From the NCBI GenBank assembly GCA_964623775.1, contig CAZUVH010000001.1, positions 284,784 through 348,783 of the forward strand: a stretch of 64,000 nucleotides of DNA, read 5' to 3'. Of this stretch, positions 20,395-36,591 are shown one piece after another. This stretch comes from an uncultured Candidatus Saccharibacteria bacterium. Its GTDB lineage: Bacteria > Patescibacteriota > Minisyncoccia > Phycocordibacterales > UBA2100. The position numbers and the translations under genes are program-made. Within the stretch, counting starts at the first letter, position 1. Every line of letters begins with the position of its first letter. The notes below the pieces were generated by a model, which searched no databases, was not told the DNA's origin, and saw only the letters and a program-made list of their open reading frames with translations.

Positions 20395-20447
20395 GACCCT
20401 TCAGTTACGTTTGAAATGGGGACCCTAATGCTATATAGTGCTTCTCT

Positions 20448-21437
20448 ATGAACTCTAAACACCTCGCAGGGAAGAATATTCTCATAACGGGAGGTACCGG
20501 TACCTTTGGTACTGCGATGACTCGGCACCTTTTGGATACGACCGACGTACGGAGGGTGACTATTTTCAGCAGAGATGAATACAAGCAGAGCGTGATGGCG
20601 GGAAATTTTGGTAACGATCCGAGGCTCAATTTTTTTCTTGGTGATATTCGTGACGCTGCTCGATTGCGTCGCGCTTTCAATCAAATCGATATCGTCATAC
20701 ATGCCGCAGCTCTTAAGCAGGTTCCTGCGCTCGAATATAATCCGACCGAAGCGATTGATACAAACATCACAGGAACGAAAAATGTGATCGATGCCGCGCT
20801 TGATCGAGATGTCGAACGCGTACTCGTTGTTTCCAGCGACAAGGCCGTCCAGCCCGTCAATCTCTATGGCGCTACAAAAATGTGCGCGGAACGCTTGGCA
20901 ATCGCGGCGAACGTATACCGGGGTAAAAAAGGAAAGACGCGTATCAGTGCAGTGCGCTATGGCAACGTGATCGGAAGTCGCGGGTCGCTCATAGAGCTTA
21001 TTGAGAAACAGAGGGCAAGCGGCGTACTGCCACTCACCGATCCGCGTATGACGCGTTTCTGGCTCCATATCGGTGACGTGATGGGACTAGTTACGGAAAT
21101 ACTCGCCATTATGGAAGGTGGCGAGATCTTCGTCCCGAAAATGAAAAGTCTTCGCGTCGAAGATGTGATGCGCGTCGTAGCGCCTGAGTGCAAGATCAAG
21201 GTTGTCGGTATGCGACCCGGAGAAAAGTTGCACGAAACCCTCGTTACAGAGCACGAGGCCACCCGAACCAAAGATATTGGAAATCTCTATGTTGTTTTGC
21301 CGGAATTTCATTCATGGAGCTCGAAAGTTTCAATTTTCGCAAATAAGAGGTCGTTTGACGCAAAGGAGATATACGTGAGCAACAATGAAAAGTATCTGCT
21401 TGGACAAAAGGACGTAAAAAAGATACTCAAACTATAG
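20448..21437 (+). CDS. pseB: UDP-N-acetylglucosamine 4,6-dehydratase (inverting), PseB/FlaA1 type
   Basis: It is collinear with H. pylori PseB (ILITGGTGTFG…FSRDEYKQS…RLNFFLGDIRD…HAAALKQVPALEYNP…DKAVQPVNLYGATKMC…VRYGNVIGSRGS…MTRFW…GGEIFVPKM…GMRPGEKLHE). Confidence 0.85.
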   Translation: MNSKHLAGKNILITGGTGTFGTAMTRHLLDTTDVRRVTIFSRDEYKQSVMAGNFGNDPRLNFFLGDIRDAARLRRAFNQIDIVIHAAALKQVPALEYNPTEAIDTNITGTKNVIDAALDRDVERVLVVSSDKAVQPVNLYGATKMCAERLAIAANVYRGKKGKTRISAVRYGNVIGSRGSLIELIEKQRASGVLPLTDPRMTRFWLHIGDVMGLVTEILAIMEGGEIFVPKMKSLRVEDVMRVVAPECKIKVVGMRPGEKLHETLVTEHEATRTKDIGNLYVVLPEFHSWSSKVSIFANKRSFDAKEIYVSNNEKYLLGQKDVKKILKL

Positions 21438-21475
21438 TTGTTTCGTGATAAGTGGTAGTGCGATACTATCCTGAT

Positions 21476-22396: not shown

Positions 22397-22401
22397 GATC
22401 C

Positions 22402-22956
22402 ATGATCGTCGTGCTCGCCTCTGATATTAAAAAAGAGGGTAATTTGTGGGCGCTCGACGAATGGTCGCTCATAAGAGTAGCGGCGGGCGAATGCTTCTAT
22501 AAGAAAGACCCATCGGACCGCGTGATTGTCGTAGGGGGCGGCAGCCCAGGCGACGACCGACCGACGGTGGCCTCTCTCATGAGCCGATATCTCATTGATA
22601 AGGGAGTACCTGAGTCGGCAATAGTGTCTGAAGATACCTCTCTCTCGACGTTGCAGGAGTTGCTGCAAGTGCAAGGTTTTACTGAGGAGACGGGGCCGAA
22701 AGACATCAGTATAATCTCAAGTGAGTGGCATTTAGAGAGAGTTAGAGCCATACTTGAGTACTTTCCAAAGCTCTCAACGCTGAATAAGTCTGCGCCAAGT
22801 TTTCTTGCCGCCGAAGATATACTTTTGCGCGAAAACCCAGTCGAATGGGAAAACTTTATCGAAAAATCACGTAAAAATCCAGAGACGGAAACTCGGCGAG
22901 CCAATGAAAAAAAGGGCGTCGCTCAAATTATCGACGGGACCTATCACTACCGATAG
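22402..22956 (+). CDS. DUF218 (YdcF/SanA/ElyC-like) domain protein
   Basis: The pattern VIVVGGGS…SLMSRYLIDKGVPESAIVSEDTSLST…ISSEWHLERV is typical of DUF218. Confidence 0.55.
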   Translation: MIVVLASDIKKEGNLWALDEWSLIRVAAGECFYKKDPSDRVIVVGGGSPGDDRPTVASLMSRYLIDKGVPESAIVSEDTSLSTLQELLQVQGFTEETGPKDISIISSEWHLERVRAILEYFPKLSTLNKSAPSFLAAEDILLRENPVEWENFIEKSRKNPETETRRANEKKGVAQIIDGTYHYR

Positions 22957-22985
22957 CGCCAATTTACCGGACTCGCAATCAAGTT

Positions 22986-23744
22986 CTATTTCCGGATACC
23001 TTGTCGCGGATATTCTTTTTCATGCAGCGTATTGAGCGCAGCAACATTGGGATTTTGGTCGAGAAATTCTATTACGTCAGGGACGCTGATGATGCGATTT
23101 GACGTAGAGAATCGATCATAGAGCTTCGAAATAAGTTCATAATCTTCCTGATAGTCGAGGGTGAGCCGATATTGTGGACGCGCAAAAATTCCGCGTGCTT
23201 CTACCATCTTCCCGATGCGGAATTCACCCGTTTTGTTTTCATGAATATAAGGGGTCACATGTTCTCGTTCATAGATCTCCCGAGCCTCGGTACACGCCTT
23301 CTCAAGCGCCTTGAATGAAAAGACCTCACAGTCCAATCCGCGCGGAAACGTACGTTCTCCGGGGAGGGCGTTGCTTACGTAATCACATTTCCCATGTTTG
23401 TACACGTCTATGACCTCGGTGATGATACTGGGGTCGAGAAGGGGGCAGTCGCTAGTGATCCGTACGATAGTTTCAATTTTAAATTGCTGTGCAGCGTCGA
23501 AATAGCGCGAAAGAACGTCGTCTCGCGATCCGCGAAAACAAGAATATCTGTTTCGCGAGCAAAAATCGGCAATCGCGTCATCTTCTGTCTCAGTGGTCGT
23601 CGCTACAATGACGGAGTCGATGCCGCGTACCTGTTTGACGCGTTCAATGACATGCTGGAGTACCGGCTTGCCTGCAAGTGATAAAAGCACTTTGCCTGGA
23701 AGACGCGTGGAACTCATGCGAGCTTGGATGATGACTCCGATCAT
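22986..23744 (-). CDS. acylneuraminate cytidylyltransferase family protein (PseF/SpsF-like CMP-sugar synthetase)
   Basis: The N-terminus is MIGVIIQARMSSTRLPGKVL. Further motifs are …VIVATT…FRGS..DVLSRY and …RITSDCPLLD. The start is at M32 of the listed ORF (23744). Confidence 0.75.
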   Translation of the reverse strand: MIGVIIQARMSSTRLPGKVLLSLAGKPVLQHVIERVKQVRGIDSVIVATTTETEDDAIADFCSRNRYSCFRGSRDDVLSRYFDAAQQFKIETIVRITSDCPLLDPSIITEVIDVYKHGKCDYVSNALPGERTFPRGLDCEVFSFKALEKACTEAREIYEREHVTPYIHENKTGEFRIGKMVEARGIFARPQYRLTLDYQEDYELISKLYDRFSTSNRIISVPDVIEFLDQNPNVAALNTLHEKEYPRQGIRK

Positions 23745-23805
23745 GTTGTCACTATATATCCCGAAGCACCTTAGCAAAAGTACACTTGCAAGAGCGGTTA
23801 AATTA

Positions 23806-23834
23806 TTGACAGCATCTACACTGTCCGCTAACGT
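23806..23834 (+). promoter_or_regulatory. candidate sigma70-like promoter (TTGACA-17-TAACGT) for the downstream cytidylyltransferase gene
   Basis: TTGACA lies at 23806–23811. A 17-nt spacer follows, then TAACGT at 23829–23834, 6 nt before ATG 23841. The -10 element is weak. Confidence 0.3.
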
Positions 23835-23840
23835 CACCCT

Positions 23841-24584
23841 ATGTTGACCGCTATAGTGCAGGCGAGGATGTCCTCGACAAGACTCCCCGGGAAAGTTCTA
23901 AAAGAAGTCCACAATAGGCCACTACTTTCCTACCTCATTGAGCGTTTACAGAGGGTGTCTGAAATAGAGAAGATCGTCGTAGCAACCACTGATAGTGTCG
24001 CTGATGATGCGATCGCCGAGTACTGCAAAAAAAATGGAATTTCTGTTTTCCGTGGATCGGAAAACGATGTACTCGATCGTTACATGAAGGCTGCCATGGA
24101 ATACAGCGCAAATCCCATAGTCCGCATCACAGGTGATTGCCCACTACTTGATGTTGATACGGTGCAAAAGCTGATCGAAGTGTATAAAAAAGGTGGGGTC
24201 GATTATGTGGTGACGGGGCAGTCTTTTACTGAGGGATTTGATTGTGAAATTTTTTCCCAAAAAATGCTCGAACTCTCTCATGTAAATGCCACAAAGTCGT
24301 CCGAGCGCGAACATGCAACACTGTATATGTACACTCATCCCGAGGTGTGTAGAAAATTCATCCTTGAAAATTCAACAGACGACAGTAGTTACCGCGTGAC
24401 AGTCGACGAACCGGAGGACTTTGCTGTGGTGAAAACTATCATTGAAGGTATCTATCCGAATAATTCAGAATTCACCGCAGGCGACATTAAAAATTTTTTA
24501 GACTCCCACCCTGAGATCAGAGACCTTAATAAGGGCATTGTTCGGAATGAAGGTCTCCTTAAATCGCTAGCAGATGAGAAGTAA
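23841..24584 (+). CDS. acylneuraminate cytidylyltransferase family protein (PseF/SpsF-like), paralog of 22986–23744, divergently transcribed
   Basis: The N-terminus is MLTAIVQARMSSTRLPGKVL. Further motifs are …VVATT…FRGSENDVLDRY and …RITGDCPLLD. Confidence 0.75.
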   Translation: MLTAIVQARMSSTRLPGKVLKEVHNRPLLSYLIERLQRVSEIEKIVVATTDSVADDAIAEYCKKNGISVFRGSENDVLDRYMKAAMEYSANPIVRITGDCPLLDVDTVQKLIEVYKKGGVDYVVTGQSFTEGFDCEIFSQKMLELSHVNATKSSEREHATLYMYTHPEVCRKFILENSTDDSSYRVTVDEPEDFAVVKTIIEGIYPNNSEFTAGDIKNFLDSHPEIRDLNKGIVRNEGLLKSLADEK

Positions 24585-24594
24585 TTGAAATTTC

Positions 24595-25749
24595 ATGAGT
24601 ATGAAAGAAATCCAATATCGAGATCGCTCTTGTGATTGCTGTGGAAGCGTAGATCTGGAAAAGGTGTGGGACTATACTTACAATGCAAGAACAAAAAATG
24701 AGACGTACTTATGGCAAGTCACGAATGTCATTTGCCAGCATTGTGGTTTCGCGTTCGTCTCTCCGGTCCCTAAGCAGGAGAGCCTTGCTGATTATTACGC
24801 CAACTCCTTTGTTTCGCAGCAGGCGGAATTTTATTATTCCATCTCAAAAAGAGTCCAGCTCATCCGTAAATACACACCCTTGAGAAGGAGATCGCTTTTT
24901 GTCGAGGTGGGAAGCAACAATGACACGAAATTCCAAGAGGAATTAACAAAAGTAGTTGAGTATCACAATGTGGAGATCAATAAAAGCGCAGAAGCAGACT
25001 CTCGATCACTCACTGAGATATTGCCAAATAGCGTTGATATTGCAGCATTGTATTTTGTACTTGAACATATTCCCGACCTGAAAAATTTTCTCGTACAGTG
25101 CAGTGTAGTGTTGAAAGAACACGGAATATTGATCATTGAAGTGCCAGACGCATCCTTGTATGACGAGAGAAATGAAGGCCTTGTATTATGGGAGCACACA
25201 AATCATTTCACACCAAAGACGCTTGAGTATGTAGCCAGTCTCAACGGATTGCAGCTCCTCGAAGCGGGGCATGAGGCGTGCTCAAGAGATTTCGGATTTG
25301 CAGCCGTTTTTGAAAAAAAGACCGGGCCTATCGAGGTTCAAAAACCAGGTGCAGAAGAATACAGAAACACGTTATCGAAAATGCGCGCGGGCGTTAAGAA
25401 ATATGAAATTCGAAACGAAAAACTCAACGAGGTGAGACGCAAGATTGCCGCCACCGCAATCGCGGGAAAAAAAGTAACTTTGTGGGGCGCAACGAGTGTG
25501 TGCCAGGATCTTTTGAGCGGTTATGAATTACCGGAGTCCGTTTCCGTCGTGGACTCTGCTTTGCAAAAGAAGGATTTTTTGTCCGATAAGGGTGTTCAGG
25601 TGCGTTTACCGCAAGACGCATTTGCGCATATCGCGGAGACGGATCTTTTCGTAATAAACACGCAAGATTATAAAGAGGATATCCTTAATGACATCAAAAA
25701 AATGACAGGCAGGACATTAAATGAAAGTGAGTATATAGTGGTCAAATAA
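24595..25749 (+). CDS. C-methyltransferase family protein (TylCIII-like architecture: Zn-ribbon + MTase-like + C-methyltransferase C-terminal domain)
   Basis: The N-terminus has CDCCGS…CQHCG. Motif I is degenerate (LFVEVGSNND). The C-terminal domain (KKVTLWGATSVCQDLL…) resembles the C-terminal domains of the ORFs at 1–995 and 44761–46035. Confidence 0.6.
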   Translation: MSMKEIQYRDRSCDCCGSVDLEKVWDYTYNARTKNETYLWQVTNVICQHCGFAFVSPVPKQESLADYYANSFVSQQAEFYYSISKRVQLIRKYTPLRRRSLFVEVGSNNDTKFQEELTKVVEYHNVEINKSAEADSRSLTEILPNSVDIAALYFVLEHIPDLKNFLVQCSVVLKEHGILIIEVPDASLYDERNEGLVLWEHTNHFTPKTLEYVASLNGLQLLEAGHEACSRDFGFAAVFEKKTGPIEVQKPGAEEYRNTLSKMRAGVKKYEIRNEKLNEVRRKIAATAIAGKKVTLWGATSVCQDLLSGYELPESVSVVDSALQKKDFLSDKGVQVRLPQDAFAHIAETDLFVINTQDYKEDILNDIKKMTGRTLNESEYIVVK

Positions 25750-25769
25750 GGCTGAAATTTCGCTACCAT

Positions 25770-26984
25770 ATGCCCAAAAAGCGCCAAAAAAGAATACTGT
25801 TTATTGGGGCCGGTCCCTACCAAAAAAAGGGGATCGAGACTGCCAAGAAAATGGGTCTGTACGTAATCGCGGCGGATGGCAATCCCAACGCTCCAGGACT
25901 TCCCCTGGCTGATAAGGAATACGATGTCAACGTGACGGATGTAAATGCGAATTTGGAAATCGCGCGAAAGGAAAAGATCGATGGCGTATGTGCCGTAGCA
26001 TCTGATATAAGCATGCGAAGTGTCGCGACCATCAGCGAGATCCTCGGACTTCCCGGGATTTCGCGCGACGTAGCAGAAAGATGTCTTGATAAAGAGCTGA
26101 TGAGAAAGGCATTTGTCGCCGCTGGCGTCCCCTCGCCGAAGTCGTTTGCGGTCTATACAGTGCCCGAATTACTCAAAATCTCCAAACAACTTTCGTTCCC
26201 TGTTGTAATCAAGCCCTCTGACAGTGCCGGAAGCAGGGGAGTGAGAAGGGTGGATAGTCAAAAGGGTCTCAAAGACGCTTTTGAGAATGCAGTCGGACTC
26301 TCCTCGCAAAAAAAGGTGATTATCGAAGAGTTCATGGAAGGTGTTGAATGTTCAGTAGAAGCGTTTGTGGTGGGAGGAGAGATCCACATAATTACACTTT
26401 CCGATAAAGTGCGGACCAAGCCGCCAATCCTCACCGACATTGAGGTCTCTTTCCCCTCGGCCTATCCTGAAAAAATTCAGAAAGAAATTATCGATGTTGC
26501 AAAGCGCGCAATACGAGCAGTGGGCGTCAAGGATGCGCCGATTCACATGGAGCTGATGATGACAAAAAGCGGTCCAGTACCTGTAGAGCTTGCAGCACGC
26601 GGCCCCGGTTTTAAATTGTTTACCGATATCATTCCGGAGGTGACCGGTATAAATGTACTGAAAGCATTGATTGACCTCTCGGTCGGAAAGAAACCTGTCC
26701 TTCGTCGTGCAAAACATAAAGCATCCGTGATCAGATTCTTCTCGACAGAGGTCGCTGGTACGGTGAAGTCAATCGAGGGCGTGGAAGAAATACGGAAAAT
26801 GCGAGGCGTATACGAAATAATCATGTATGTAAATCCAGGTGATCGGGCCCGTGCACTCACGAGCGGACAGGATCGGCTCGGACACATCATTTCTATGGCG
26901 CCGTCTCTCGCGGAAGCTCATACGGTCGTAGAGAGGGCCCTTGCGAGATTATCGATCGAGATTACACCCGATGCTAAAAAATAA
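25770..26984 (+). CDS. ATP-grasp domain protein (carboxylate–amine ligase type)
   Basis: The sequence is RILFIGAGPYQ…LMRKAFVAAGVPSPKSF…SFPVVIKPSDSAGSRGV…IIEEFMEGVECSVEAFVV (pre-ATP-grasp plus ATP-grasp). Confidence 0.75.
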   Translation: MPKKRQKRILFIGAGPYQKKGIETAKKMGLYVIAADGNPNAPGLPLADKEYDVNVTDVNANLEIARKEKIDGVCAVASDISMRSVATISEILGLPGISRDVAERCLDKELMRKAFVAAGVPSPKSFAVYTVPELLKISKQLSFPVVIKPSDSAGSRGVRRVDSQKGLKDAFENAVGLSSQKKVIIEEFMEGVECSVEAFVVGGEIHIITLSDKVRTKPPILTDIEVSFPSAYPEKIQKEIIDVAKRAIRAVGVKDAPIHMELMMTKSGPVPVELAARGPGFKLFTDIIPEVTGINVLKALIDLSVGKKPVLRRAKHKASVIRFFSTEVAGTVKSIEGVEEIRKMRGVYEIIMYVNPGDRARALTSGQDRLGHIISMAPSLAEAHTVVERALARLSIEITPDAKK

Positions 26985-28164
26985 CAGCAATAAGAATTTT
27001 TTCTCCGAGCGCATCCTTCGCGTGCCGCCTTCCGGTACGATCGTATTAACCGATCGGGTACGAGAAATGAAAAAGGCTGGTGAAGATGTTGTTGATCTTA
27101 CGGTAGGGGAACCCAATTTTGATACACCCGTAGCAATAAAAGAAGCCGCTATCAGCGCGTTGAAAAAAGGCGAGACGAAATATGGCCCGAGTGCAGGGCT
27201 TTCTGAGCTGCGAAAGCTTATTGCAAAAAAGCTGCAATCAGAAAATAAAATAAATGTTGAAGAAAAAAATATATTAGTCACGCCGGGCGGCAAACAAGGA
27301 CTCGTGTATGCCTTCATGTCACTACTCAATGAGGGCGACGAAGTTGTCATCCCGGAGCCGACATGGGTAAGTTATTCTGCGATGGTCACGATCGCCGGTG
27401 GCGTACCTGTTGCGGTCGCGACTACTGAAGAGAATGGTTTTAAGGCGGACATACGAGATATTGAGTCGGCTATTACTAAACGGACGAAGCTCCTTGTCCT
27501 GGTAAATCCGGGTAATCCGACCGGAGTTCTTTATACAAAAAAGGATCTTGAGCGGATCGCAGAAGTGGTTGCCAAGCATGACCTTATTGTCGTTGCTGAT
27601 GAAATCTACGAAAAGATAGTTTTTGACAGTGTGCAATTTGTCAGTTTTGCCTCGCTTCCTGGTATGTTCCAAAGAACCGTCACCATCAATGGTTTCTCAA
27701 AGTCTCATGCGATGACTGGGTGGCGGCTCGGGTATGCGGCTGCGCCGGCGCCGATAATTGAAAAGATGCTCATCCTCCAGCAACAAATGGCGACGTGTCC
27801 GAATTCGTTCTCGCAATACGGAGCCGTGTATGCCTATTCGCACGAAATGCCTGAAGTAAAAAATATGGCCAGAGAATATGAGCGGCGTAGAAATACTTTC
27901 TACGAAGAAATAGAAAAAATACCGATGTATTCTGCATTACGACCCGAGGGATCGTTCTATTTATTTCTTAATGTTAAGAAATTCAAAAAAAATTCCCTCA
28001 GGGTAGCAGAAGAACTGCTGAAGACGGTAAAGCTTGCGACGGTGCCGGGGTCGTCATTTGGCGAGGCTGGCGAAGGGTACTTGCGACTCTCGTTCGCGAC
28101 GTCGGATAAAAACCTGAAAGAGGCAGTTTTGCGTCTGAAAAAATTCGCAGAACTCGCACATTAA
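26971..28164 (+). CDS. class I/II (aspartate-aminotransferase family) PLP-dependent aminotransferase
   Basis: The AAT-I lysine motif is present (TINGFSKSHAMTGWRLGYAAAP). The N-terminus is …FSERILRVPPSGTIVLTDRVREMKKAGEDVVDLTVGEPNFDTP. The start at 26971 overlaps the upstream gene by 14 nt. Confidence 0.85.
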   Translation: MLKNNSNKNFFSERILRVPPSGTIVLTDRVREMKKAGEDVVDLTVGEPNFDTPVAIKEAAISALKKGETKYGPSAGLSELRKLIAKKLQSENKINVEEKNILVTPGGKQGLVYAFMSLLNEGDEVVIPEPTWVSYSAMVTIAGGVPVAVATTEENGFKADIRDIESAITKRTKLLVLVNPGNPTGVLYTKKDLERIAEVVAKHDLIVVADEIYEKIVFDSVQFVSFASLPGMFQRTVTINGFSKSHAMTGWRLGYAAAPAPIIEKMLILQQQMATCPNSFSQYGAVYAYSHEMPEVKNMAREYERRRNTFYEEIEKIPMYSALRPEGSFYLFLNVKKFKKNSLRVAEELLKTVKLATVPGSSFGEAGEGYLRLSFATSDKNLKEAVLRLKKFAELAH

Positions 28165-28204
28165 CTGGCTTTGAATATCGTCCAGACTGGACTATATTCC
28201 TTAT

Positions 28205-29209
28205 ATGGAGGCTTTTCAGAAAGTGAACATTTTGGACTGCACGCTCCGTGATGGGAGCTATGCTGTTGACTATACATTTACCGCAGAAGACACGGCTAAA
28301 ATATGCACTGCCCTAGAGGGCGCGGGTGTTGAATATATAGAAATCGGTCACGGGGTCGGATTCAATGGCTCCGAAAAACACGGCAAGGCTGTCGCGACAG
28401 ACGAGGAGTATATAAGAGCGGCGGCAAGCGTTCTTAAAAAATCGAAATTCGGGATGTTCTGTATCCCCGGCATAGCCCGTCTCGAAGATCTTGATATGGC
28501 AGTAAGGTATGGAATGGGGTTTGTCCGCGTCGGCACCAATGTCAGTGAGGCCGAACAGTCAGAGCCTTTTATACGCAAGGCAAAGCAGCTCGGTATGCAT
28601 GTCAGCTTTAATATGATGAAGTCGTATGCCTTGCCTATAGATGAAGTCGTAAAAAAGGCGACGCTCGCGCGCAACTACGGTGCCGATGTCGTATCCGTTA
28701 TTGATTCAGCGGGTGGTATGTTGCCTGACGAGGTCTATGAATATGTCTCCAAGATCAAAAAAGAAGTCACGGGTATTGAGGTGGGTTTCCATGGGCACAA
28801 CAATTTGATGCTTGCGATGGCCAATTCTTTGGCGGCCGTCAAGGCAGGGGCGACATTCATAGACGCAACACTTCAGGGCATTGGAAGGAGTGTCGGTAAT
28901 ACACAGGCGGAGATACTGGTGCTTTTGCTCAATAAACTAGGATACAGGACGGGTATTGATGCGATAAAAATGATGGATGCGGGAGATTCGATCGTACGCC
29001 CGCTCATGCCGCAAGCGACAGGAATAGATTCGCTCAGTGCCACACTCGGAGCTGCTCAGTTCCATTCGAGCTTTCTTCCGATCGTCCAAAAGGTCGCAAA
29101 GGAACAAAGTATCGACGTCCGAAAACTGATCGGCGAAATTAGTAAGATCGATCGAATTACAGTGACTGAGGATCTCGCGAATAAAGTCGCGTCACAACTA
29201 AAAAAGTAA
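28205..29209 (+). CDS. HMGL-like (DRE-TIM) aldolase, 4-hydroxy-2-oxovalerate aldolase (DmpG/MhpE)-type
   Basis: The N-terminus ILDCTLRDGSYAVDYTF and the motifs …VEYIEIGHG…GFHGHNNLMLAMANSLAAVKAGA match DmpG/MhpE. At 334 aa it has no LeuA-type C-terminal domain. Confidence 0.75.
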   Translation: MEAFQKVNILDCTLRDGSYAVDYTFTAEDTAKICTALEGAGVEYIEIGHGVGFNGSEKHGKAVATDEEYIRAAASVLKKSKFGMFCIPGIARLEDLDMAVRYGMGFVRVGTNVSEAEQSEPFIRKAKQLGMHVSFNMMKSYALPIDEVVKKATLARNYGADVVSVIDSAGGMLPDEVYEYVSKIKKEVTGIEVGFHGHNNLMLAMANSLAAVKAGATFIDATLQGIGRSVGNTQAEILVLLLNKLGYRTGIDAIKMMDAGDSIVRPLMPQATGIDSLSATLGAAQFHSSFLPIVQKVAKEQSIDVRKLIGEISKIDRITVTEDLANKVASQLKK

Positions 29210-29214
29210 TAATC

Positions 29215-30378
29215 ATGAGCGCAAAGAAAGGTAAAAAGGATTTGATCCCGTACTCTCGTCAAACTGTCGATGCGGACGACATACGTGAAGTTGTTAAGAC
29301 CCTGAAGGCGCCGTTTCTTACGCAAGGGCCAAAAATCAAAGAATTTGAAGCGTTGGTTGCAAAATTTACAGGTACACGATTCGCCGTTGCGTTCTCAAAT
29401 GGCACGACCGCTCTTCATGCGGCCTATTCTGCTGCAGGCATCCGCGCGAATGACGAGGTCATCGTTCCCGCCCTGACGTTTGCTGCCACAAGCAATGCCG
29501 CTTTGTATCTCGGTGCGAAACCAGTCTTTGCAGATAGTGATATTCATACGGGCAATGTTGATCCGGCTGCGGTAGAGAGAAATGTAACGGGAAAAACGAA
29601 GGCGATTGTGGCGGTGGATTATGCGGGCAATCCCGCTGATCTTGCCGGGATGCGCAATATTGCCAAGAAACATAACCTTGTATTTATCGAAGATGGCGCC
29701 CAGAGCCTTGGCGCGACCTATCAGAAGCGATCCGTTGGTACGCAGGCAGACATGACGATGTTTAGCTTCCATCCGGTCAAATCAATTACCACGGCGGAGG
29801 GCGGGATAATCGTCACAGATAATGAGCGATACTACGAACATCTCATGATGTTTCGTACGCACGGAATGACTGCGGATTCAAAAAAAATGAATAACAAAAC
29901 GTATGCCAAATGGCACCGAGAGATGCATGTTCTCGGCAATAACTACCGTCTGAGTGATGTTCATGCTGCACTTGGTGTATCGCAGATGCGCAAACTACGA
30001 GGATTTATCGTTAAGCGGCGCGCGGCGGCGAAACGATATTTTTCGCTACTCAAAAATTTCGAGGGAATAAAGTTGCCGCCAATAGAGATTCTCGAATCGT
30101 CCGCGTGGCACCTTTTTCCAGTGCATGTGAATCCCCGTCACCGCGACGCGATTTTCAATGGACTTTTGGCAGCGGGCATCGGTGTGCAAGTTCATTATCT
30201 ACCGGTCTATATGCATCCGTACTACCAAGGTCTCGGATACCAAGAAGGGATTTGTCCAAATGCGGAGAAGTACGCCTTCTCAGAAATCTCGATACCGTTG
30301 TTTCCCGGTATTACACAGCGAGAGCAAGTTTACATCGCCAAGACCCTGATCAGGCTCGTGAAGGACCTCGATCGCTAG
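29215..30378 (+). CDS. pseC: UDP-4-amino-4,6-dideoxy-N-acetyl-beta-L-altrosamine transaminase-like DegT aminotransferase
   Basis: It is collinear with H. pylori PseC (…KTKAIVAVDYAGNPADL…FSFHPVKSITTAEGGIIVTDNERYYEHLMMFRTHGM…NYRLSDVHAALGVSQ…GIGVQVHYLPVY…). Confidence 0.85.
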   Translation: MSAKKGKKDLIPYSRQTVDADDIREVVKTLKAPFLTQGPKIKEFEALVAKFTGTRFAVAFSNGTTALHAAYSAAGIRANDEVIVPALTFAATSNAALYLGAKPVFADSDIHTGNVDPAAVERNVTGKTKAIVAVDYAGNPADLAGMRNIAKKHNLVFIEDGAQSLGATYQKRSVGTQADMTMFSFHPVKSITTAEGGIIVTDNERYYEHLMMFRTHGMTADSKKMNNKTYAKWHREMHVLGNNYRLSDVHAALGVSQMRKLRGFIVKRRAAAKRYFSLLKNFEGIKLPPIEILESSAWHLFPVHVNPRHRDAIFNGLLAAGIGVQVHYLPVYMHPYYQGLGYQEGICPNAEKYAFSEISIPLFPGITQREQVYIAKTLIRLVKDLDR

Positions 30379-30418
30379 AGAGCTCGAAACACGCCGTTTT
30401 ACGGGCTATAGTGAGAAT

Positions 30419-31027
30419 ATGATCGCCATCGTTGATTATGGAATGGGGAACGTTAGATCAATGGTAAACGCGCTTGCGCGTATCGGCGCAGAAGGCATCG
30501 TTACATCAAAAGACAAAGATTTTGCACGTGCCACGCATATTATTTTCCCAGGTGTCGGAGCATTCAGTGATGGAATGCGTGAATTACATACGAGGGGAAT
30601 CATCCCGCTCCTTGAGCGTGAGGTATTGAAGCGAAAAAAGCCGTTTCTCGGAGTGTGTTTGGGCATGCAGTTGCTCATGGAAAAAGGTGAAGAAGGTGGC
30701 GAGATAGATGGTCTCGGATGGATATCTGGGAGGACGCGACGTCTTAGGGTCGACGAGCTCAAATTTCGTTTACCGCATATAGGGTGGAATGACGTACGCG
30801 TCAATGACTCAAAATTATTCACCGAAGTGAGTGCGCTCGATTTCTACTTCGTGCACAGCTTCGTGGTCGATCCCGAAGACGCGACGCTTGTCACAGGGAC
30901 TTGTGATTACGGTGAATCGTTCGTTGCGAGTGTGCAAAAGAACAACATATACGGCGTCCAGTTTCATCCGGAAAAAAGTCAGAAGAGTGGTTCACGGGTA
31001 CTCAAGAATTTTGTAAGCCTATGCTGA
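30419..31027 (+). CDS. HisH-like glutamine amidotransferase (second copy)
   Basis: The sequence is MIAIVDYGMGNVRSMVNAL…FPGVGAFSDGM…LGVCLGMQLLM…VQFHPEKS. Confidence 0.85.
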   Translation: MIAIVDYGMGNVRSMVNALARIGAEGIVTSKDKDFARATHIIFPGVGAFSDGMRELHTRGIIPLLEREVLKRKKPFLGVCLGMQLLMEKGEEGGEIDGLGWISGRTRRLRVDELKFRLPHIGWNDVRVNDSKLFTEVSALDFYFVHSFVVDPEDATLVTGTCDYGESFVASVQKNNIYGVQFHPEKSQKSGSRVLKNFVSLC

Positions 31028-31770
31028 AGATTCGTATAATTCCCACGCTCACAGTCAAGGCGGAGCGATTGGTAAAAAGTGTTAAATTCGAGAACCACCG
31101 AAATATTGGGAGCTCAATTGCGGCGGTACGAGTTTTCAATGCGCGCGACGTTGACGAGCTCGTCTTTCTGGATATCGATGCGCGTATGCGGGGTATTGAT
31201 ACGAGGTTACTCGAAGATGTGACAAAAGAATGCTGCATGCCGGTGACACTTGGTGGCGGCGTGAAAACCCTCGAAGACTTCAAAAAGATGCTCGCGATCG
31301 GGGCAGATAAGGTTGCAATAAATACTGTCGCTCTCGATGATCCCGATCTTATCGATGCGGCATCAAAAAGGTATGGAGCTCAATGCGTCGTCGTCTCGAT
31401 TGATGTCCGAAAAATCAATAGTGCGTACGAAGTATTTGGATGTGGTGGCAAGCAGGCAAGCGGAAAGGATCCGGTCGCCTGGGCAAAGGAAGTTGAGAAA
31501 CGAGGTGCTGGGGAGATTTTACTCACCTCGATTGATAACGATGGAGTTATGGAGGGATATGATCTCGAATTGATCAAAAAGGTCTCCTCTGCTGTGAGGA
31601 TACCCATCATTGCTTCGGGCGGAGCGGGGATACCAGCGCATTGTGTCGAGGCTGTTACCGCAGGCGCTTCTGCCGTCGCGGCAGCGAGCATCTTTCAGTA
31701 CACACAAACGACGCCGTCATCGATAAAGGAAGCGTTGAGGAATGCCGGTTTCCCCACGCGGGCCTCATAG
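31021..31770 (+). CDS. HisF-like cyclase subunit homolog (second copy)
   Basis: The sequence is MLKIRIIPTLTVKAERLVK…DELVFLDIDA…TLGGGVKT…SIDNDGVMEGYDLEL…IASGGAG. The start overlaps the upstream stop. Confidence 0.85.
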   Translation: MLKIRIIPTLTVKAERLVKSVKFENHRNIGSSIAAVRVFNARDVDELVFLDIDARMRGIDTRLLEDVTKECCMPVTLGGGVKTLEDFKKMLAIGADKVAINTVALDDPDLIDAASKRYGAQCVVVSIDVRKINSAYEVFGCGGKQASGKDPVAWAKEVEKRGAGEILLTSIDNDGVMEGYDLELIKKVSSAVRIPIIASGGAGIPAHCVEAVTAGASAVAAASIFQYTQTTPSSIKEALRNAGFPTRAS

Positions 31771-31819
31771 GCGCTTAAATTGGCATTCACGTGTTATTTC
31801 TGTAAGATGGTGAGCAACT

Positions 31820-32473
31820 ATGGGACGTACGAAGAAAACGAAGCAAATATCGCATTGGGCGGGTAAAAACGGTAATGCGTATGTAGACCGTAATCCGCAG
31901 ACCACAAAACAAATGGAGAGCCTCTACGCGAAAGATTATGGTGTAAGCCGAAGTTCGATGGATAAAGAATTTTTAAAATCGTTCAACAAGAAGAGTGCGT
32001 CCATTCTCGAAGTGGGGGCGAACGTTGGTACGCAGCTGCAATTTTTGCACGAGCACGGGTTTGCAAAACTTCTTGGCATCGATGTGAATCGCCACGCCAT
32101 AAAAGAAGCAAAGCGTCTTCGCCCGGACGTGGATATTATCGAGGCGTCGGGTTTTGACCTGCCGTTTAAAGACGGAGCGTTTGACCTCGTCTATACTTCA
32201 GGCGTTCTCATTCATATCTCACCAAAAGATATTAAAGACATCATTCGTGAGATGTATCGCGTGTCCCGAAAATATATTTGGGGATTCGAATACTATGCGC
32301 CGAAATATACAGCGGTGACCTACCGCGGAAAAAAGGATCTTTTATGGAAGACGGATTTTGCGGCGCTTTTCCAAAAAGAATTTCCGGATCTAAAAGTCGT
32401 GAAGGAAAAGATCTATAAAATGTCAGACGGTGTAAACGCGACCAAGATGTATTTATTGAAAAAAAGTAACTAA
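31820..32473 (+). CDS. class I SAM-dependent methyltransferase (pseudaminic-acid-biosynthesis-associated methylase-like)
   Basis: Motif I is SILEVGANVGTQL, followed by …LLGIDVN…LVYTSGVLIHISP. The 217-aa gene is embedded between HisF-like and PseA-like genes. That placement matches the ~210-aa methyltransferase family described next to Pse genes. Confidence 0.7.
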   Translation: MGRTKKTKQISHWAGKNGNAYVDRNPQTTKQMESLYAKDYGVSRSSMDKEFLKSFNKKSASILEVGANVGTQLQFLHEHGFAKLLGIDVNRHAIKEAKRLRPDVDIIEASGFDLPFKDGAFDLVYTSGVLIHISPKDIKDIIREMYRVSRKYIWGFEYYAPKYTAVTYRGKKDLLWKTDFAALFQKEFPDLKVVKEKIYKMSDGVNATKMYLLKKSN

Positions 32474-32474
32474 C

Positions 32475-33632
32475 ATGCTCCGGTATTGTACGAAATGCGT
32501 AATGCCCGATACAAAACCTGATCTTTCATTTGACGAAGACGGGGTGTGCGACGCGTGTCGCTCGGCTTCGCATAAGGGTGAAATAGACTGGAGTGCGCGC
32601 GAGGAAGAATTTAAGGACCTGGTGGCAAGGTTCAAAAATAGCGATGGTACGAAGTATGACTGTATTATTCCGATATCGGGCGGGAAGGATAGTCACTACC
32701 AGGCGTTTATGGCCCGAAAATACGGACTCAATCCGCTCATGGTTCATTTCGAGCCCACGATGCGCACCGATCTCGGTCTGAAAAATCTCGAAAATATTCG
32801 CCAATTCGGAGACGTGATCGAGCTCAGGAAAAATCCGTCAGTATACAGAAAAATGGCCGTCGAAGGGTTTCGTCGTGTCGGCGACAATGAGTGGCCGAAT
32901 CACGTGGGTATTTTCACGTTTCCGATAAGAATTGCGGTTGCCTATAAAATACCACTCATTATTTGGGGCGAGAATTCTCAGCTCGAATATGGCGGCCCGA
33001 AGGCGGCCCGAATGAAGAATGTACTCGATCGTCGGTGGCTCGAAGAATTTGGCGGGCTCCTCGGACTACGCATTGAGGACATGATTGGCGTAGACGGTAT
33101 CAAGCATGAAGACCTCATCTCGTTTTTCTATCCGAGTGAGACAGAATTGAAAGATGCGGGAATCACAGGGGTCTTTTTGGGGTATTACTTCAAATGGGAT
33201 GCTCGGTCGCAGGTCAAGCTCATGCAGGAGCATGGTTTTTCTCTGAAAAAAGGGAAGCCAGTCGAGGGCACATATACGCATTATGAAAATTTGGATGAAG
33301 CGACCGTTGCCGTTCACGACTATCTCAAGTTCGTAAAATTTGGATTTGGAAGGACCACTGACCACGTGTGTCTTGATATAAGAAATGGCCGGATGACCAG
33401 GGATGAGGGCGTGAGACTCGTAAAAAAATACGACGGCAAATTGCCAAAAATCTCCATCACTGATTTTCTGAAGTTTTCCGGCATGTCTCGAAAAGAGTTT
33501 GATGGCGTGGTGGATTCATTTACCAATAAGGCGCTTTTCAAGACCGATGCAAAAGGGAGGTTACTTCGAGACAAGAGCGGCAGCTTGATTAAAAAGTATT
33601 CAGATTACGCGATTGAGGCTCAGCGTGGCTGA
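32475..33632 (+). CDS. N-acetyl sugar amidotransferase (WbuX/PseA-like, second copy)
   Basis: The N-terminus is CTKCVMPDTKPDLSFDEDGVCDACRS. The PP-loop is ISGGKDSHY. Its overall collinearity with 12046–13224 makes it a paralog. Confidence 0.8.
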   Translation: MLRYCTKCVMPDTKPDLSFDEDGVCDACRSASHKGEIDWSAREEEFKDLVARFKNSDGTKYDCIIPISGGKDSHYQAFMARKYGLNPLMVHFEPTMRTDLGLKNLENIRQFGDVIELRKNPSVYRKMAVEGFRRVGDNEWPNHVGIFTFPIRIAVAYKIPLIIWGENSQLEYGGPKAARMKNVLDRRWLEEFGGLLGLRIEDMIGVDGIKHEDLISFFYPSETELKDAGITGVFLGYYFKWDARSQVKLMQEHGFSLKKGKPVEGTYTHYENLDEATVAVHDYLKFVKFGFGRTTDHVCLDIRNGRMTRDEGVRLVKKYDGKLPKISITDFLKFSGMSRKEFDGVVDSFTNKALFKTDAKGRLLRDKSGSLIKKYSDYAIEAQRG

Positions 33633-33647
33633 AGTGACATACGTAAT

Positions 33648-34112: not shown

Positions 34113-34140
34113 AACCTCGAAGCGTGTACTATTCTGCCAT

Positions 34141-35181
34141 ATGCAGATAGGTAAGCGGAAGATTGGTAAGGGGCAACCTGTTTTCGTTATTGCCGAGATA
34201 TCGGGCAACCACAATCAGGACATTAATCGCGCCTACGCGATTATTGATGCCGCTGCTGAAGCGGGTGCAGATGCCGTAAAACTTCAAACCTATACGCCGG
34301 ATACCATTACTATCGATTCAGACCAGGAGTATTTTGTAGTTAGGTACAAGAATCCAGATTGGAAGGGCAAAACGTTGTTTCAGTTGTATGGAGAAGCATA
34401 TACACCTTGGGATTGGCAGCCTAAATTAAAGGAATACGCTGAAAAAAAGGGCCTCATTTGTTTCTCATCGCCATTTGATACCACATCCGTTGATTTTTTG
34501 GAGAAAATGCACGTTCCGGCGTATAAAGTCGCCTCTCCCGAGGTTGTTGATGTGCCACTTCTCGAGAGAATAGGTAAGACAAAAAAACCCGTCATTATGT
34601 CGCGCGGGATGGCGAAGCCCGACGAATTACGTTTTGCTATCAAGACCCTAAAAGGGAGCGGTACTAAAGAGGTGGCGATTCTACACTGCGTGAGCGCATA
34701 TCCCGCAATACCTGAGGAGATGAATCTTGCGACCATTCCAGATATCTCAAAACGTTTTAATGTGGTCGCGGGCCTTTCTGATCATACGCTCGGGATCGAG
34801 GTGCCTGTGGCCGCCGTTGCATTAGGGGCATTGATAATCGAGAAACATCTTACGATGAAACGATTTGATGGAGGTCCTGATGCATCCTTCTCTCTTGAGC
34901 CATCCGAATTCAAAGCGATGGTTTCGGCGATTCGAATTACTGAAAAGTCTGTCGGTAAGCCGATGTATACGTTGCTCGCAGAAGAGAATATCCTCGGTAG
35001 AAAATCTTTATTTATTGTGAAAGATGTAAAAAAGGGAGATTTGTTTACTCCGGAGAACGTTAGATCGATTCGCCCCGGCCATGGACTTGCGCCAAAGTAT
35101 TACAAAAAAGTAATAGGTAAGCGTGCAAAGATGGATGCAAAGAGGGGCACACCACTTTCTCGGGGCCACGTGAGCATATAA
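34141..35181 (+). CDS. pseI: NeuB-family nonulosonic acid synthase (pseudaminic acid synthase candidate) with C-terminal SAF domain
   Basis: The sequence is PVFVIAEISGNHNQDINRAYAIIDAAAEAGADAVKLQTY…GLSDHTLGIEVPVAAVALGA. The C-terminal SAF domain is LFIVKDVKKGDLFTPENVRSIRPG. The assignment as pseI, as opposed to neuB or legI, rests on the co-located pseB/pseC. Confidence 0.8.
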   Translation: MQIGKRKIGKGQPVFVIAEISGNHNQDINRAYAIIDAAAEAGADAVKLQTYTPDTITIDSDQEYFVVRYKNPDWKGKTLFQLYGEAYTPWDWQPKLKEYAEKKGLICFSSPFDTTSVDFLEKMHVPAYKVASPEVVDVPLLERIGKTKKPVIMSRGMAKPDELRFAIKTLKGSGTKEVAILHCVSAYPAIPEEMNLATIPDISKRFNVVAGLSDHTLGIEVPVAAVALGALIIEKHLTMKRFDGGPDASFSLEPSEFKAMVSAIRITEKSVGKPMYTLLAEENILGRKSLFIVKDVKKGDLFTPENVRSIRPGHGLAPKYYKKVIGKRAKMDAKRGTPLSRGHVSI

Positions 35182-35189
35182 TACAAGGT

Positions 35190-35969
35190 ATGGTCATTGA
35201 CGGGCACGTCCATATCTGGGATTCCTCGGACAAAGGATACACAAAAGGCGACGGGTCACTGGAGACGCTTCTAAAAAAAATGGATGAAAATCCAGAGATA
35301 GGGAAGGTCGTGCTCCTGCCCATATCGCCTTTTGTAAGCAATAGTTATATCGGTAAAGTTTGCGCCGAACATCCCGATAAGCTTATCGGTTTTGCGTCAG
35401 TCGATCCGAAGAGTGATACGGCGGTTGAGACGTTTGGGCGTGATGTGCGCCAATATGGTCTTCGAGGTCTCAAATTGCATCCTCGCGTCCAACAGATGGC
35501 AGCATCCGATGAAAGGATTGTAAAGCTGGTAAAAAAAGCAGCTGAGCTGAATGTGCCCGTGCTCATTGATTGTTTCCCGCAAGACACTGCTGCGTTCCCT
35601 GTCGAGAATTTGTTCCCAGAAAGAATCGGTGAACTTGCGCAAAAAGTGCCGGAGGCAAAAATTATTATGGCGCACGTGGGTGGGTACAAAATTATGGATG
35701 CCTTCGCCGTCGCGAAGGCGCGCCAGAACATATACTTCGACTTCTCTTTTTCGCCGCATTATTACAAAGGCTCTTCCATAGAACAGGATCTGGTCTTTGT
35801 ATTGAAAAAGATTGGCTCGAAGCGTTGCATATACGGATCCGATTATCCGGAGGTGTCCATGAAAGAGTCGCTTGAAATCGCGAAGGAGATGGTTGAGAAA
35901 GCGGGCTTTAGCGCTGAGGATAAAGAGTATTTTTTTGGCAAAACACTATTGTCGTTGCTCCCTGCTTAA
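35190..35969 (+). CDS. amidohydrolase-2 family metal-dependent hydrolase (TIM barrel)
   Basis: The N-terminus is MVIDGHVHIWD. Further motifs are …GLRGLKLHP and …IMAHVGG…GSDYP. Confidence 0.65.
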   Translation: MVIDGHVHIWDSSDKGYTKGDGSLETLLKKMDENPEIGKVVLLPISPFVSNSYIGKVCAEHPDKLIGFASVDPKSDTAVETFGRDVRQYGLRGLKLHPRVQQMAASDERIVKLVKKAAELNVPVLIDCFPQDTAAFPVENLFPERIGELAQKVPEAKIIMAHVGGYKIMDAFAVAKARQNIYFDFSFSPHYYKGSSIEQDLVFVLKKIGSKRCIYGSDYPEVSMKESLEIAKEMVEKAGFSAEDKEYFFGKTLLSLLPA

Positions 35970-35973
35970 ATTC

Positions 35974-36591
35974 ATGGATAAAAAAGATAAAGAAGAGGCG
36001 ATACGGCGCTACGAAAGCAGGCTCGAAGAATTTGGCGAGTCGATGAAAGCACTGGGGTGGAGAAATGAGGAGCAGCAAAAGCTGCGTTTCAAGATTCTTG
36101 CTGAGATCGGCGATTTGCGCGGAAAAAAAATTCTCGATGTGGGCTGCGGCTTCGGGGATTTTTACGGCTATTTGAAAGAGCGGGGCATCGAGACAGATTT
36201 CACAGGTTATGATGTTACCCCGAAGTTTATTGATGTAGCGAAAAAGAAATACCCGGAGGCAAAGTTTAAGGTCATGGACATACAGTCTGACAAAGTCGGG
36301 GAGTCGTTCGATTACGTTTTTTCATCAGGCGTTTTTAATCACGCGATCACTGATAATATGAAATTTACCGAAGATATGATAAAAAAGATGTTCGACCTCG
36401 CGAAGATCGGTGTGGCGACGAATATGATGACCGATAAAGTTGATTTTAAAGACGAGCATCTCTTCTATTATTCACCTGAAGAAATGCTCGCGTATGCAAA
36501 GAAAATCTCGGGCAACGCGGAATTGCGAGAAAATTATGGATTGTATGAATTCAGCTTGTATATAAGGCATCAAGCGGAGCCAGCCAGCTAA
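35974..36591 (+). CDS. class I SAM-dependent methyltransferase
   Basis: Motif I is KILDVGCGFGDF, followed by …FDYVFSSGVFNH. The start is at MDKKDKEE. The 35872–35973 extension overlaps the amidohydrolase and is not supported. Confidence 0.75.
   Translation: MDKKDKEEAIRRYESRLEEFGESMKALGWRNEEQQKLRFKILAEIGDLRGKKILDVGCGFGDFYGYLKERGIETDFTGYDVTPKFIDVAKKKYPEAKFKVMDIQSDKVGESFDYVFSSGVFNHAITDNMKFTEDMIKKMFDLAKIGVATNMMTDKVDFKDEHLFYYSPEEMLAYAKKISGNAELRENYGLYEFSLYIRHQAEPAS

Follow-up and report, generated by a model that had tools for sequence, protein, structure and literature searches.

An aldolase, an aminotransferase and an ATP-grasp ligase in a pseudaminic acid locus of a Candidatus Saccharibacteria genome: a candidate module for side-chain synthesis and ligation

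The three genes and their setting

Three adjacent genes, for an ATP-grasp ligase, a class-I aminotransferase and a DmpG-type aldolase (here called the trio), lie on contig CAZUVH010000001.1 of an uncultured Candidatus Saccharibacteria bacterium, among genes for a pseudaminic acid (Pse)-type nonulosonic acid. The stretch analysed, called the window throughout, comprises the 64,000 nucleotides (64 kb) from position 284,784 to 348,783 of that contig. Relatives of the aldolase are found in many other genomes, and the ligases encoded beside them suggest that the aldolase makes an acid destined for activation and attachment. The trio is made up as follows.

25770..26984, + strand: ATP-grasp carboxylate-amine ligase of the L-amino-acid-ligase type, 404 amino acids (aa)
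26971..28164, + strand: class-I (aspartate aminotransferase, AspAT, subgroup) pyridoxal phosphate (PLP) aminotransferase, 397 aa from an ATG; the longest open reading frame (ORF) starts from a TTG at 26941
28205..29209, + strand: DmpG-type class II (metal-dependent) pyruvate aldolase, 334 aa

The trio lies inside a co-directional array (23841-38134) with gaps of at most 49 nucleotides (nt). The gaps between the preceding methyltransferase gene, the ATP-grasp, aminotransferase and aldolase genes and pseC are 20, -14, 40 and 5 nt, the ATP-grasp and aminotransferase genes overlapping by 14 nt. The original prediction, made from the letters and a list of ORFs, had placed the three genes at these positions and immediately upstream of pseC. 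Both points are borne out, by an ORF check and by independent gene calls of public assemblies that give identical products of 404, 397 and 334 aa for the same sequence, and by the start of pseC, 5 nt past the aldolase stop. The enzyme identities it had proposed agree with the Pfam, NCBIfam and PDB matches given below, and the motifs it had singled out (LRDGSYA and HGHNN in the aldolase, SKSHAMTGWRLGY with the PLP lysine in the aminotransferase) are all present.

The aldolase and its active site

The aldolase matches the HMGL-like family (PF00682; 152.4 bits, E 1.9e-44) and exceeds the cut-offs of TIGR03217 (306.7 > 286) and PRK08195 (331 > 229); the DmpG_comm match, at 25.1, is just below its cut-off of 27. 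The best PDB match is 1nvm (DmpG; E 2e-55), and the other closest solved structures are 8ih7, HsaF (4jn6) and 4lrs. Enzymes of the LeuA, CimA and homocitrate-synthase type are much poorer matches (PDB E values of 1e-14 to 1e-21; TIGR02146 119.8 vs 413.6), all far under their cut-offs, so that the earlier choice of DmpG over the LeuA/CimA type holds.

Alignment with 25 homologs of 49-79% identity shows which residues are retained. They include the pyruvate-binding arginine (Arg15; DmpG Arg17) and the metal ligands Asp16, His196 and His198 (DmpG Asp18, His200 and His202), and binding of metal and pyruvate is still to be expected. Five other positions are exchanged relative to DmpG: His21 is replaced by Tyr19, Tyr291 by His287, Leu88 by Phe85, Leu90 by Ile87 and Met142 by Lys139. 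These exchanges are a property of the clade rather than of the window, as tyrosine occurs at the DmpG His21 position in 79 of the 80 relatives in the census described below, histidine occurs at the Tyr291 position in all 80, and Lys139 is invariant in the clade. The exchanged positions lay outside the peptide patterns by which those loci were retrieved. In BphI, His20 (DmpG His21) is reported by Baker et al. (2011) to serve as the catalytic base. Leu87 and Tyr290 of BphI flank the C4 stereocentre, Tyr290 enforcing 4S specificity, and Leu89 limits the length of the aldehyde (PMC3962088); the equivalents in the window aldolase are Phe85, His287 and Ile87.

Judged by these residues, the clade is distinct from the catabolic DmpG enzymes. 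Due to the exchanges, neither the aldehyde partner nor the stereochemistry can be read across from DmpG. No DmpF, meta-cleavage hydratase or other meta-cleavage gene was found in the ORFs of at least 150 aa scanned in the 64-kb window (Pfam/NCBIfam) or in the related loci inspected. With catalytic and stereochemical residues exchanged, a different aldehyde pocket and no DmpF, the protein is unlikely to be a true 4-hydroxy-2-oxovalerate aldolase, and the two-carbon (acetaldehyde) extension originally envisaged for it is unproven. Relatives within the clade bear the name 4-hydroxy-2-oxovalerate aldolase in public records, which is probably an over-annotation.

About half of the clade aldolases (about 39 of 80 loci) are fused to, or trailed by, a domain of ~350 aa, for example at L025:11003-12130, L007:12230-13288 and L172:13844-15886 (L numbers denote related loci). 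It has no Pfam match and shows weak similarity to Rossmann domains of the glutamate dehydrogenase type (E 0.006). Reduction or reductive amination of the aldol product at C2 is a conceivable role for such a domain.

The ATP-grasp ligase and the aminotransferase

The ATP-grasp protein matches LAL_C2 (72.2 bits, E 4.3e-20, cut-off 29.4) and ATP-grasp_4 (72 bits, E 5.8e-20) in Pfam, and its PDB matches include 4dim (E 1.5e-30), BL00235 (E 4e-27), RizA (E 1e-16) and BacD (E 6e-16). On these matches it is assigned to the L-amino-acid ligase subgroup, in line with the amide ligase originally proposed. An enzyme of the PurK or biotin-carboxylase type was considered and rejected: there are no Biotin_carb domains, the accC and PurT scores are 49.6 vs 768 and 59 vs 502, and the PF02222 match (28 bits) is at threshold. 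Orthologs with 55-65% identity occur in the Pse-type loci L004, L005, L006, L172 and L173, and an aldolase lies within a few genes of five of the six closest orthologs.

The aminotransferase matches PF00155 (Aminotran_1_2; 254 bits, E 2.5e-75) and is under every NCBIfam equivalog cut-off, the best being NF041091 (408.6 vs 550). Its nearest PDB entries are the Pyrococcus enzymes 1dju and 1gd9 (E 1e-102); SKSHAMTGWRLGY aligns with SKTFAMTGWRLGF of 1dju, and the Schiff-base lysine motif SKxxxMTGWR is present. Orthologs follow the ATP-grasp gene in L004 (65% identity) and L173 (47%). In a neighbour-joining tree, built without bootstrap, the window sequence groups with those of L004, L007, L013 and L015, apart from 80 background sequences. 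A metagenome scan with the aminotransferase gave no further orthologs, only relatives of 38-44% identity, many of them apparently housekeeping and without glycan neighbours.

Two ligases that replace each other beside the aldolase

The array, originally called unusual, is no one-off and belongs to a widespread module: a scan by peptide patterns, with one genome per species, gave at least 600 matching stretches, of which at least 544 encode relatives of the aldolase. These span many bacterial phyla and several archaeal lineages. The best 80 of the at least 544 aldolase loci (41-53% identity) were taken as the census sample; they come mostly from metagenome-assembled genomes (MAGs), with cultured carriers including Chlorobium ferrooxidans DSM 13031, Pseudoalteromonas sp. 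MTN2-4, Anaerosporobacter mobilis DSM 15930 and a Streptomyces. The 80 loci were searched by tblastn within 10 kb of the aldolase, with the following counts.

ATP-grasp homolog near the aldolase: 28 of 80 loci
AMP-binding (adenylate-forming) ligase near the aldolase: 40 of 80 loci
Both ligase types near the aldolase: 0 of 80 loci
Either ligase type near the aldolase: 68 of 80 loci
PseI/NeuB homolog near the aldolase: 26 of 80 loci
PseB homolog near the aldolase: 15 of 80 loci
DegT-type aminotransferase near the aldolase, often directly adjacent: 34 of 80 loci

Where at least 5 kb was available on both sides of the aldolase, a ligase lay within 5 kb in 50 of 54 loci. Under independence both ligases would be expected together in 14 loci, against none observed (P ~2e-12 with the loci treated as independent, a value that overstates the evidence because the 80 loci, many of them from Acidobacteriaceae, are phylogenetically non-independent). 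As a background, 80 loci retrieved with the aminotransferase (887 kb) contained no ATP-grasp homolog, two AMP-binding homologs and no PseI homolog.

Each ligase type also has companions of its own. An Amidohydro_2 protein and a methyltransferase of ~205 aa accompany the ATP-grasp type in 13 and 15 of 28 loci, respectively, and both are absent from the 40 loci of the AMP-binding type. The latter have a cyclase-family hydrolase (PF04199; 36 loci) and a DUF4910/DUF2172 protein (18 loci); DUF2172 is reported to be named alongside Cj1295 in a Campylobacter survey, and Cj1295 is presumably a member of this family. The two types look like parallel solutions for the same set of steps. One locus of the AMP-binding type, L090, also has B12-radical-SAM (S-adenosylmethionine) enzymes, together with an 84-aa ORF and a phosphopantetheinyl transferase; the last two fit an acyl unit that is loaded and transferred. 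Because two non-homologous carboxylate-activating enzymes replace each other beside the aldolase, the aldolase product would be the acid that is activated and attached, and this replacement is the strongest indication obtained for such a role.

The opposite polarity would have the ATP-grasp enzyme activate the carboxylate of a sugar (a uronic acid or C1 of the nonulosonic acid), to be amidated by the alpha-amine of an amino acid from the aldolase and aminotransferase. ATP-grasp enzymes of the Campylobacter capsule amidate glucuronate in this way, with amines from a neighbouring transaminase (Cj1438/Cj1437), and a UDP-sugar dehydrogenase gene stands at the start of both L172 and L173. No such dehydrogenase occurs among the scanned ORFs of the window, however, and the nearest relatives of the ligase are L-amino-acid ligases, which activate the carboxylate of an amino acid. 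In the AMP-type loci its counterpart forms acyl adenylates and is encoded near a phosphopantetheinyl transferase, and the substrate activated is therefore expected to be a small acid rather than a sugar. The reversed arrangement is quite unlikely on this evidence.

The breadth of the census also bears on whether the trio is there by coincidence, with a catabolic 4-hydroxy-2-oxovalerate aldolase and a housekeeping aspartate aminotransferase caught up in a glycan locus. The TIGR03217 score, the names of the relatives in public records and the similarity of the aminotransferase to many apparently housekeeping enzymes (38-44% identity) would all agree with this. Against it stand the absence of DmpF and meta-cleavage genes, the exchanged active-site residues, and an association with glycan genes that is kept across phyla, including archaea, and is not seen around the background aminotransferases. 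We consider mere coincidence highly improbable, and a catabolic DmpG was rejected on the glycan context together with the active-site changes.

The closest related loci

Among the closest relatives, L004 has orthologs of the ATP-grasp enzyme (65%), the aminotransferase (65%), the aldolase (69%), PseI (72%), the cytidylyltransferase (57%) and a class-III aminotransferase (59%). In L005 the genes for the ATP-grasp enzyme, aldolase, PseI, Amidohydro_2 protein and methyltransferase are consecutive. L172 (Uhrbacteria) and L173 share, in their first part, the order PseB, PseC, aldo-keto reductase, class-III aminotransferase, cytidylyltransferase, NeuB, PseG-like protein and ATP-grasp enzyme, followed in L173, and not in L172, by a class-I aminotransferase; both continue with a methyltransferase, a protein of ~300 aa of unknown type, a DegT-like protein and an aldolase fused to the ~350-aa domain. 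Even the distant Syntrophales locus L007 has a 381-aa methyltransferase, the ATP-grasp enzyme, a fused aldolase and a class-I aminotransferase in that order. Gene order near the trio is kept in L004, L005, L172, L173 and L007.

L006, from Zambryskibacteria, is syntenic with L004, the common proteins being ~80% identical, and differs from it by exactly the aldolase and the class-I aminotransferase. Their joint gain or loss links these two genes to each other.

The surrounding pseudaminic acid locus

The other genes of the array, and a PseB-like gene upstream of it, are listed below.

20448..21437, + strand: PseB-like UDP-GlcNAc 4,6-dehydratase (TIGR03589 398.8 vs 407.75, just under)
23841..24584, + strand: CTP_transf_3 cytidylyltransferase (Pfam E 1e-32), first gene of the array, a probable CMP-nonulosonate synthetase
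24595..25749, + strand: 384-aa SAM methyltransferase (Methyltransf_23, Pfam), 20 nt upstream of the ATP-grasp gene
29215..30378, + strand: PseC (TIGR03588 432 vs 423.5)
30419-33632: HisH, WbuZ, a Pse-associated methylase and WbuX, downstream of PseC (HisH/WbuX/WbuZ set)
33648-34112: GNAT, between WbuX and PseI
34141..35181, + strand: PseI pseudaminic acid synthase (TIGR03586 455.8 vs 340.25)
35190..35969, + strand: Amidohydro_2 metal-dependent hydrolase/hydratase-type protein (Pfam E 5.4e-31)
35974..36591, + strand: ~205-aa SAM methyltransferase (Pfam); the longest ORF starts from 35872
36599-38134: 511-aa protein without a firm family, end of the array

PseC is identified by its equivalog cut-off as UDP-4-amino-4,6-dideoxy-N-acetyl-beta-L-altrosamine transaminase. 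Orthologs of the first cytidylyltransferase (57-63% identity) adjoin PseI in L004, L005 and L006. The 384-aa methyltransferase belongs to a rare family of 40 homologs, members of which stand beside clade aldolases with both ligase types (L007, L024, L034, L043, L049, L085, L090 and L091); tailoring of the side chain is its probable role. The Amidohydro_2 protein, with a 61% identical ortholog in L005, probably also belongs to the module, where it might act on the side chain by lactone, lactam or hydration chemistry. For the ~205-aa methyltransferase the start (ATG at 35974) was fixed by aligning the 68%-identical ortholog of L005, and it too is a probable tailoring enzyme of the module. The functional unit probably extends past 25770-29209, taking in the methyltransferase at 24595-25749 and the Amidohydro_2/methyltransferase pair at 35190-36591. 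A scan of 19000-38500 for promoters and terminators gave site counts equal to those of shuffled sequence.

Alternatively, the aldolase might use a sugar-derived aldehyde, building or extending a higher-carbon ulosonic acid that the aminotransferase and the ATP-grasp enzyme then tailor. CMP-activated ulosonic acids with a C10 backbone and without assigned genes have been described in Magnetospirillum (bioRxiv 10.64898/2026.04.20.719630), and the aldolase is often directly beside DegT-type sugar aminotransferases and NeuB homologs. PseI is sufficient for a C9 backbone, however; the coupling to acyl-activating ligases and the carrier-protein genes of L090 fit a small acyl unit better, and the only aldehydes known to be used by DmpG-family enzymes are small ones (PMC3962088). 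A sugar aldehyde as substrate is, on balance, very unlikely.

Further features of the locus are recorded here as side observations. A class-III (glutamate-1-semialdehyde-aminomutase-like) aminotransferase, an aldo-keto reductase and a DUF218 protein, all within 19075-22956, recur together with PseB, PseC, cytidylyltransferase and NeuB genes in L004, L006, L009, L079, L172 and L173, even where the aldolase is absent, and may represent an as yet uncharacterised form of the core pathway to nonulosonic acids. A second CTP_transf_3 cytidylyltransferase (22986-23837) is the sole gene of the array on the minus strand. The start of its longest ORF lies 3 nt from the divergent start at 23841, and the Pfam match begins at residue 35, so that the true start is probably near 23738; the ortholog in L005 adjoins a second NeuB gene, which the window lacks. 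Complete sets of the acetamidino-forming amidotransferase genes HisH/WbuX/WbuZ occur twice (11405-14300 and 30419-33632), suggesting two amidino groups or two amidinated sugars. The 475-aa (14845-16272) and 511-aa (36599-38134) proteins, neither of which could be firmly placed in a family, are distant paralogs, both matching a 503-aa protein of L005 that has a weak Capsule_synth match, and are candidates for nonulosonic acid transferases.

Between 16293 and 19014 lie three genes whose products are like the beta subunit of succinyl-CoA synthetase (with a citrate-binding domain), its alpha subunit and, at 227 aa, citryl-CoA lyase. As a set they look like either an ATP-citrate lyase in split form or a citryl-CoA synthetase with its lyase. 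No homolog of this group was found in any of 85 related loci. Speculatively, it might supply oxaloacetate (an aldol donor of the RhiG type) and acetyl-CoA. Further upstream are ADP-heptose genes and an ATP-binding cassette (ABC) exporter, while the downstream side has additional sugar-modifying genes and encodes a Wzy_C-TPR protein, SecA and GatB. The 736-aa Wzy_C-TPR protein (52290-54500), which may be a glycan ligase or oligosaccharyltransferase, is followed by SecA (58713-61292); the same order is seen in the Zambryskibacteria MAG locus L006, and the same Wzy_C-TPR protein is also present in L004. The synteny with L006 hints that the window has a Patescibacteria-like origin.

The proposed pathway

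We hold with moderate confidence that the trio is the core of a module for the synthesis and ligation of a side chain (acyl donor) inside the Pse locus. The gene identities, the residue exchanges and the co-occurrence pattern are observations, while all chemical steps of the following scheme are inferred. As expected from its family, the aldolase would condense an aldehyde with an enolate formed from pyruvate (or, as in RhiG, by decarboxylation of oxaloacetate), giving a 4-hydroxy-2-oxo acid. The class-I aminotransferase, to judge from family and co-occurrence, would turn C2 into an amine, and the resulting gamma-hydroxy-alpha-amino acid may be modified by the methyltransferases, and perhaps by the Amidohydro_2 protein, as the gene context suggests. 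The ATP-grasp enzyme, if it acts like others of its family, would phosphorylate the carboxylate of this acid with ATP to an acyl phosphate, and attack by a sugar amine would form the amide. The acceptor is most plausibly the C4 amine that PseC places on the UDP-sugar, later N7 of Pse; it is favoured because N5 is probably made acetamidino by the neighbouring WbuX/HisH/WbuZ proteins.

Several observations weigh against this scheme, besides the relatedness of the census loci mentioned above. A class-I aminotransferase homolog occurs in 7 of the 80 aldolase loci, and L005 and L172 carry the ATP-grasp enzyme and the aldolase without one. The module as a whole therefore does not generally involve transamination, and the aminotransferase, originally counted as a core part, is better described as accessory. 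L006 has an ATP-grasp ortholog (62% identical) with neither aldolase nor aminotransferase within 10 kb, so that the ligase is not strictly dependent on the other two. The window also lacks the ~350-aa C-terminal domain, the ~300-aa unknown protein and the divergent DegT-like gene of its close relatives. A PseG-like hydrolase was not found in the 64-kb window by tblastn, while a PseG-like gene is present beside NeuB in the close relatives L172 and L173, and in L007. The two GNATs (14297-14848 and 33648-34112), with scores of 47.6 and 35.8, are under the PseH cut-off of 93.1, and the cytidylyltransferase is under the PseF cut-off (34 vs 205.7). Given the missing PseG and the low-scoring GNATs, the Pse pathway, including the passage from UDP-sugar to free hexose, is not fully accounted for.

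Some of this evidence would also fit the absence of any single linear pathway. The ATP-grasp enzyme would then attach an ordinary metabolite (e.g. alanine or glutamate), while the aldolase, with or without the aminotransferase, served a separate decoration or precursor attached by another enzyme. The persistence of the ligase in L006, a 37%-identical ATP-grasp protein in a glycan locus without aldolase (L008), and the AMP-binding enzyme that stands in its place in 40 aldolase loci indicate that neither partner is obligatory for the other. The strict exclusivity of the two ligases is nevertheless hard to explain unless the ligase acts on an acid derived from the aldolase, and the proximity of an aldolase to five of the six closest ATP-grasp orthologs, and the 14-nt overlap of the ATP-grasp and aminotransferase genes in the window, are further points against separate pathways. 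We regard such a separation as unlikely.

The N-acyl decoration pathway of the original prediction is supported in one part, the activation and attachment of the aldolase product (one ligase in 68 of 80 loci, both in none); its other parts have not fared as well, since the aminotransferase is accessory, the ligase persists without the aldolase and the two-carbon extension is unproven. N-acyl decoration of nonulosonic acids is itself already known, while the aldolase-based route is undescribed: a literature search on pseudaminic and nonulosonic acids found no description of the aldolase module among the papers searchable.

More tentatively, the window may represent one case of a large, unrecognised family. 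In this family a rewired DmpG-type aldolase (His/Tyr exchange) would make 3-deoxy-4-hydroxy acids from pyruvate, C2 would be reduced (perhaps by the fused Rossmann-like domain) or transaminated, and the acid would be methylated and joined to amino sugars, including pseudaminic acid, by an ATP-grasp or an adenylate-forming ligase. On flagella, capsules and S-layers, the N-acyl groups of nonulosonic acids are very diverse and affect motility, phage susceptibility and immune recognition, and we know of no genes for most of the non-acetyl substituents. If the proposal is correct, N-acyl groups that still lack assigned genes, among them the 2-methoxy-4,5,6-trihydroxyhexanoyl group on Treponema denticola flagellin, would gain a genetic basis, and the source organism is predicted to make a new pseudaminic acid with an amino-acyl group. 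The signature RDGSY plus FHS in a DmpG-like aldolase, beside an ATP-grasp or AMP-binding ligase, would flag loci for aldol-derived acyl groups, and the widespread database name "4-hydroxy-2-oxovalerate aldolase" would need correction for these proteins. The clade would also offer a natural aldolase scaffold with altered stereo-determining residues for biocatalysis. Three cultured carriers make the prediction open to mass spectrometry, C. ferrooxidans having the ATP-grasp type of module and the Pseudoalteromonas and A. mobilis strains the AMP-binding type.

Comparison with known systems

The catabolic aldolases DmpG, BphI, MhpE and HsaF share with the window enzyme the HMGL-like barrel plus communication domain, the metal ligands and the pyruvate-binding arginine. 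They differ in having an acylating aldehyde dehydrogenase as partner and a catabolic context, in contrast to the biosynthetic glycan genes found here.

The closest parallel to the trio as a set of enzymes is the APPA (2-amino-5-phosphono-3-pentenoic acid) pathway of rhizocticin and plumbemycin (Bacillus subtilis ATCC 6633), which likewise combines an aldolase, a transamination that yields a non-proteinogenic amino acid, and amide formation by ATP-grasp enzymes of the L-amino-acid-ligase type. RhiG, an HMGL-like aldolase related to DmpG, makes 2-keto-4-hydroxy-5-phosphonopentanoate (PMC8942020), and rhizocticin is assembled by the ATP-grasp ligases RhiM and RhiC (PMC13579937). The acceptor there is an amino acid, as opposed to the presumed amino sugar here. 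A phosphonate product of the rhizocticin kind was rejected for the window, as neither phosphoenolpyruvate (PEP) mutase nor phosphonopyruvate decarboxylase is present among its scanned ORFs; the aldehyde is therefore not phosphonoacetaldehyde.

In Shewanella oneidensis the flagellin-modification genes sfmABCDE include a SAM methyltransferase (~395 aa) followed by an ATP-grasp_4 protein (~412 aa) beside nonulosonic acid genes; the operon adds a methylatable moiety of 236 Da to a 274-Da nonulosonic acid, and the flagellin mass shift is smaller when the ATP-grasp protein is missing (PMC3765264). The likeness to the window, where a methyltransferase of 384 aa precedes the ATP-grasp enzyme of 404 aa, is one of gene order and sizes only. 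A short NeuB-like protein, a thiamine pyrophosphate (TPP) enzyme and a reductase are found there, in place of the aldolase and aminotransferase here. No Shewanella protein is among the homologs listed, and none of the 40 methyltransferase homologs could be linked to SfmD.

Canonical N-acylation of Pse (PseH; PseA/WbuX for acetamidino groups) takes place in the same type of locus and on the same presumed acceptor amines. It relies on acyl-CoA or amidotransferase chemistry and C2 units, whereas the window is proposed to use ATP-dependent ligation of a purpose-built hydroxy-amino acid.

The product expected of the module has its nearest counterpart in Treponema denticola, where the Pse-type sugar of flagellin is N-acylated with 2-methoxy-4,5,6-trihydroxyhexanoate (PMC13439194). 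Formally, this acyl group would correspond to an aldol adduct of pyruvate and glyceraldehyde that has been reduced and O-methylated. It shares with the proposed product a 3-deoxy, 4-hydroxylated acyl chain on a Pse-type sugar, and differs at C2, where it carries a methoxy group while the aminotransferase of the window predicts an amino group. A Spirochaetota MAG locus (L079) carries the aldolase together with the ATP-grasp enzyme and PseI. A chain of the T. denticola type is what would be expected of an aldolase acting with the Rossmann-like domain, a methyltransferase and a ligase, and the window would then encode its 2-amino variant.

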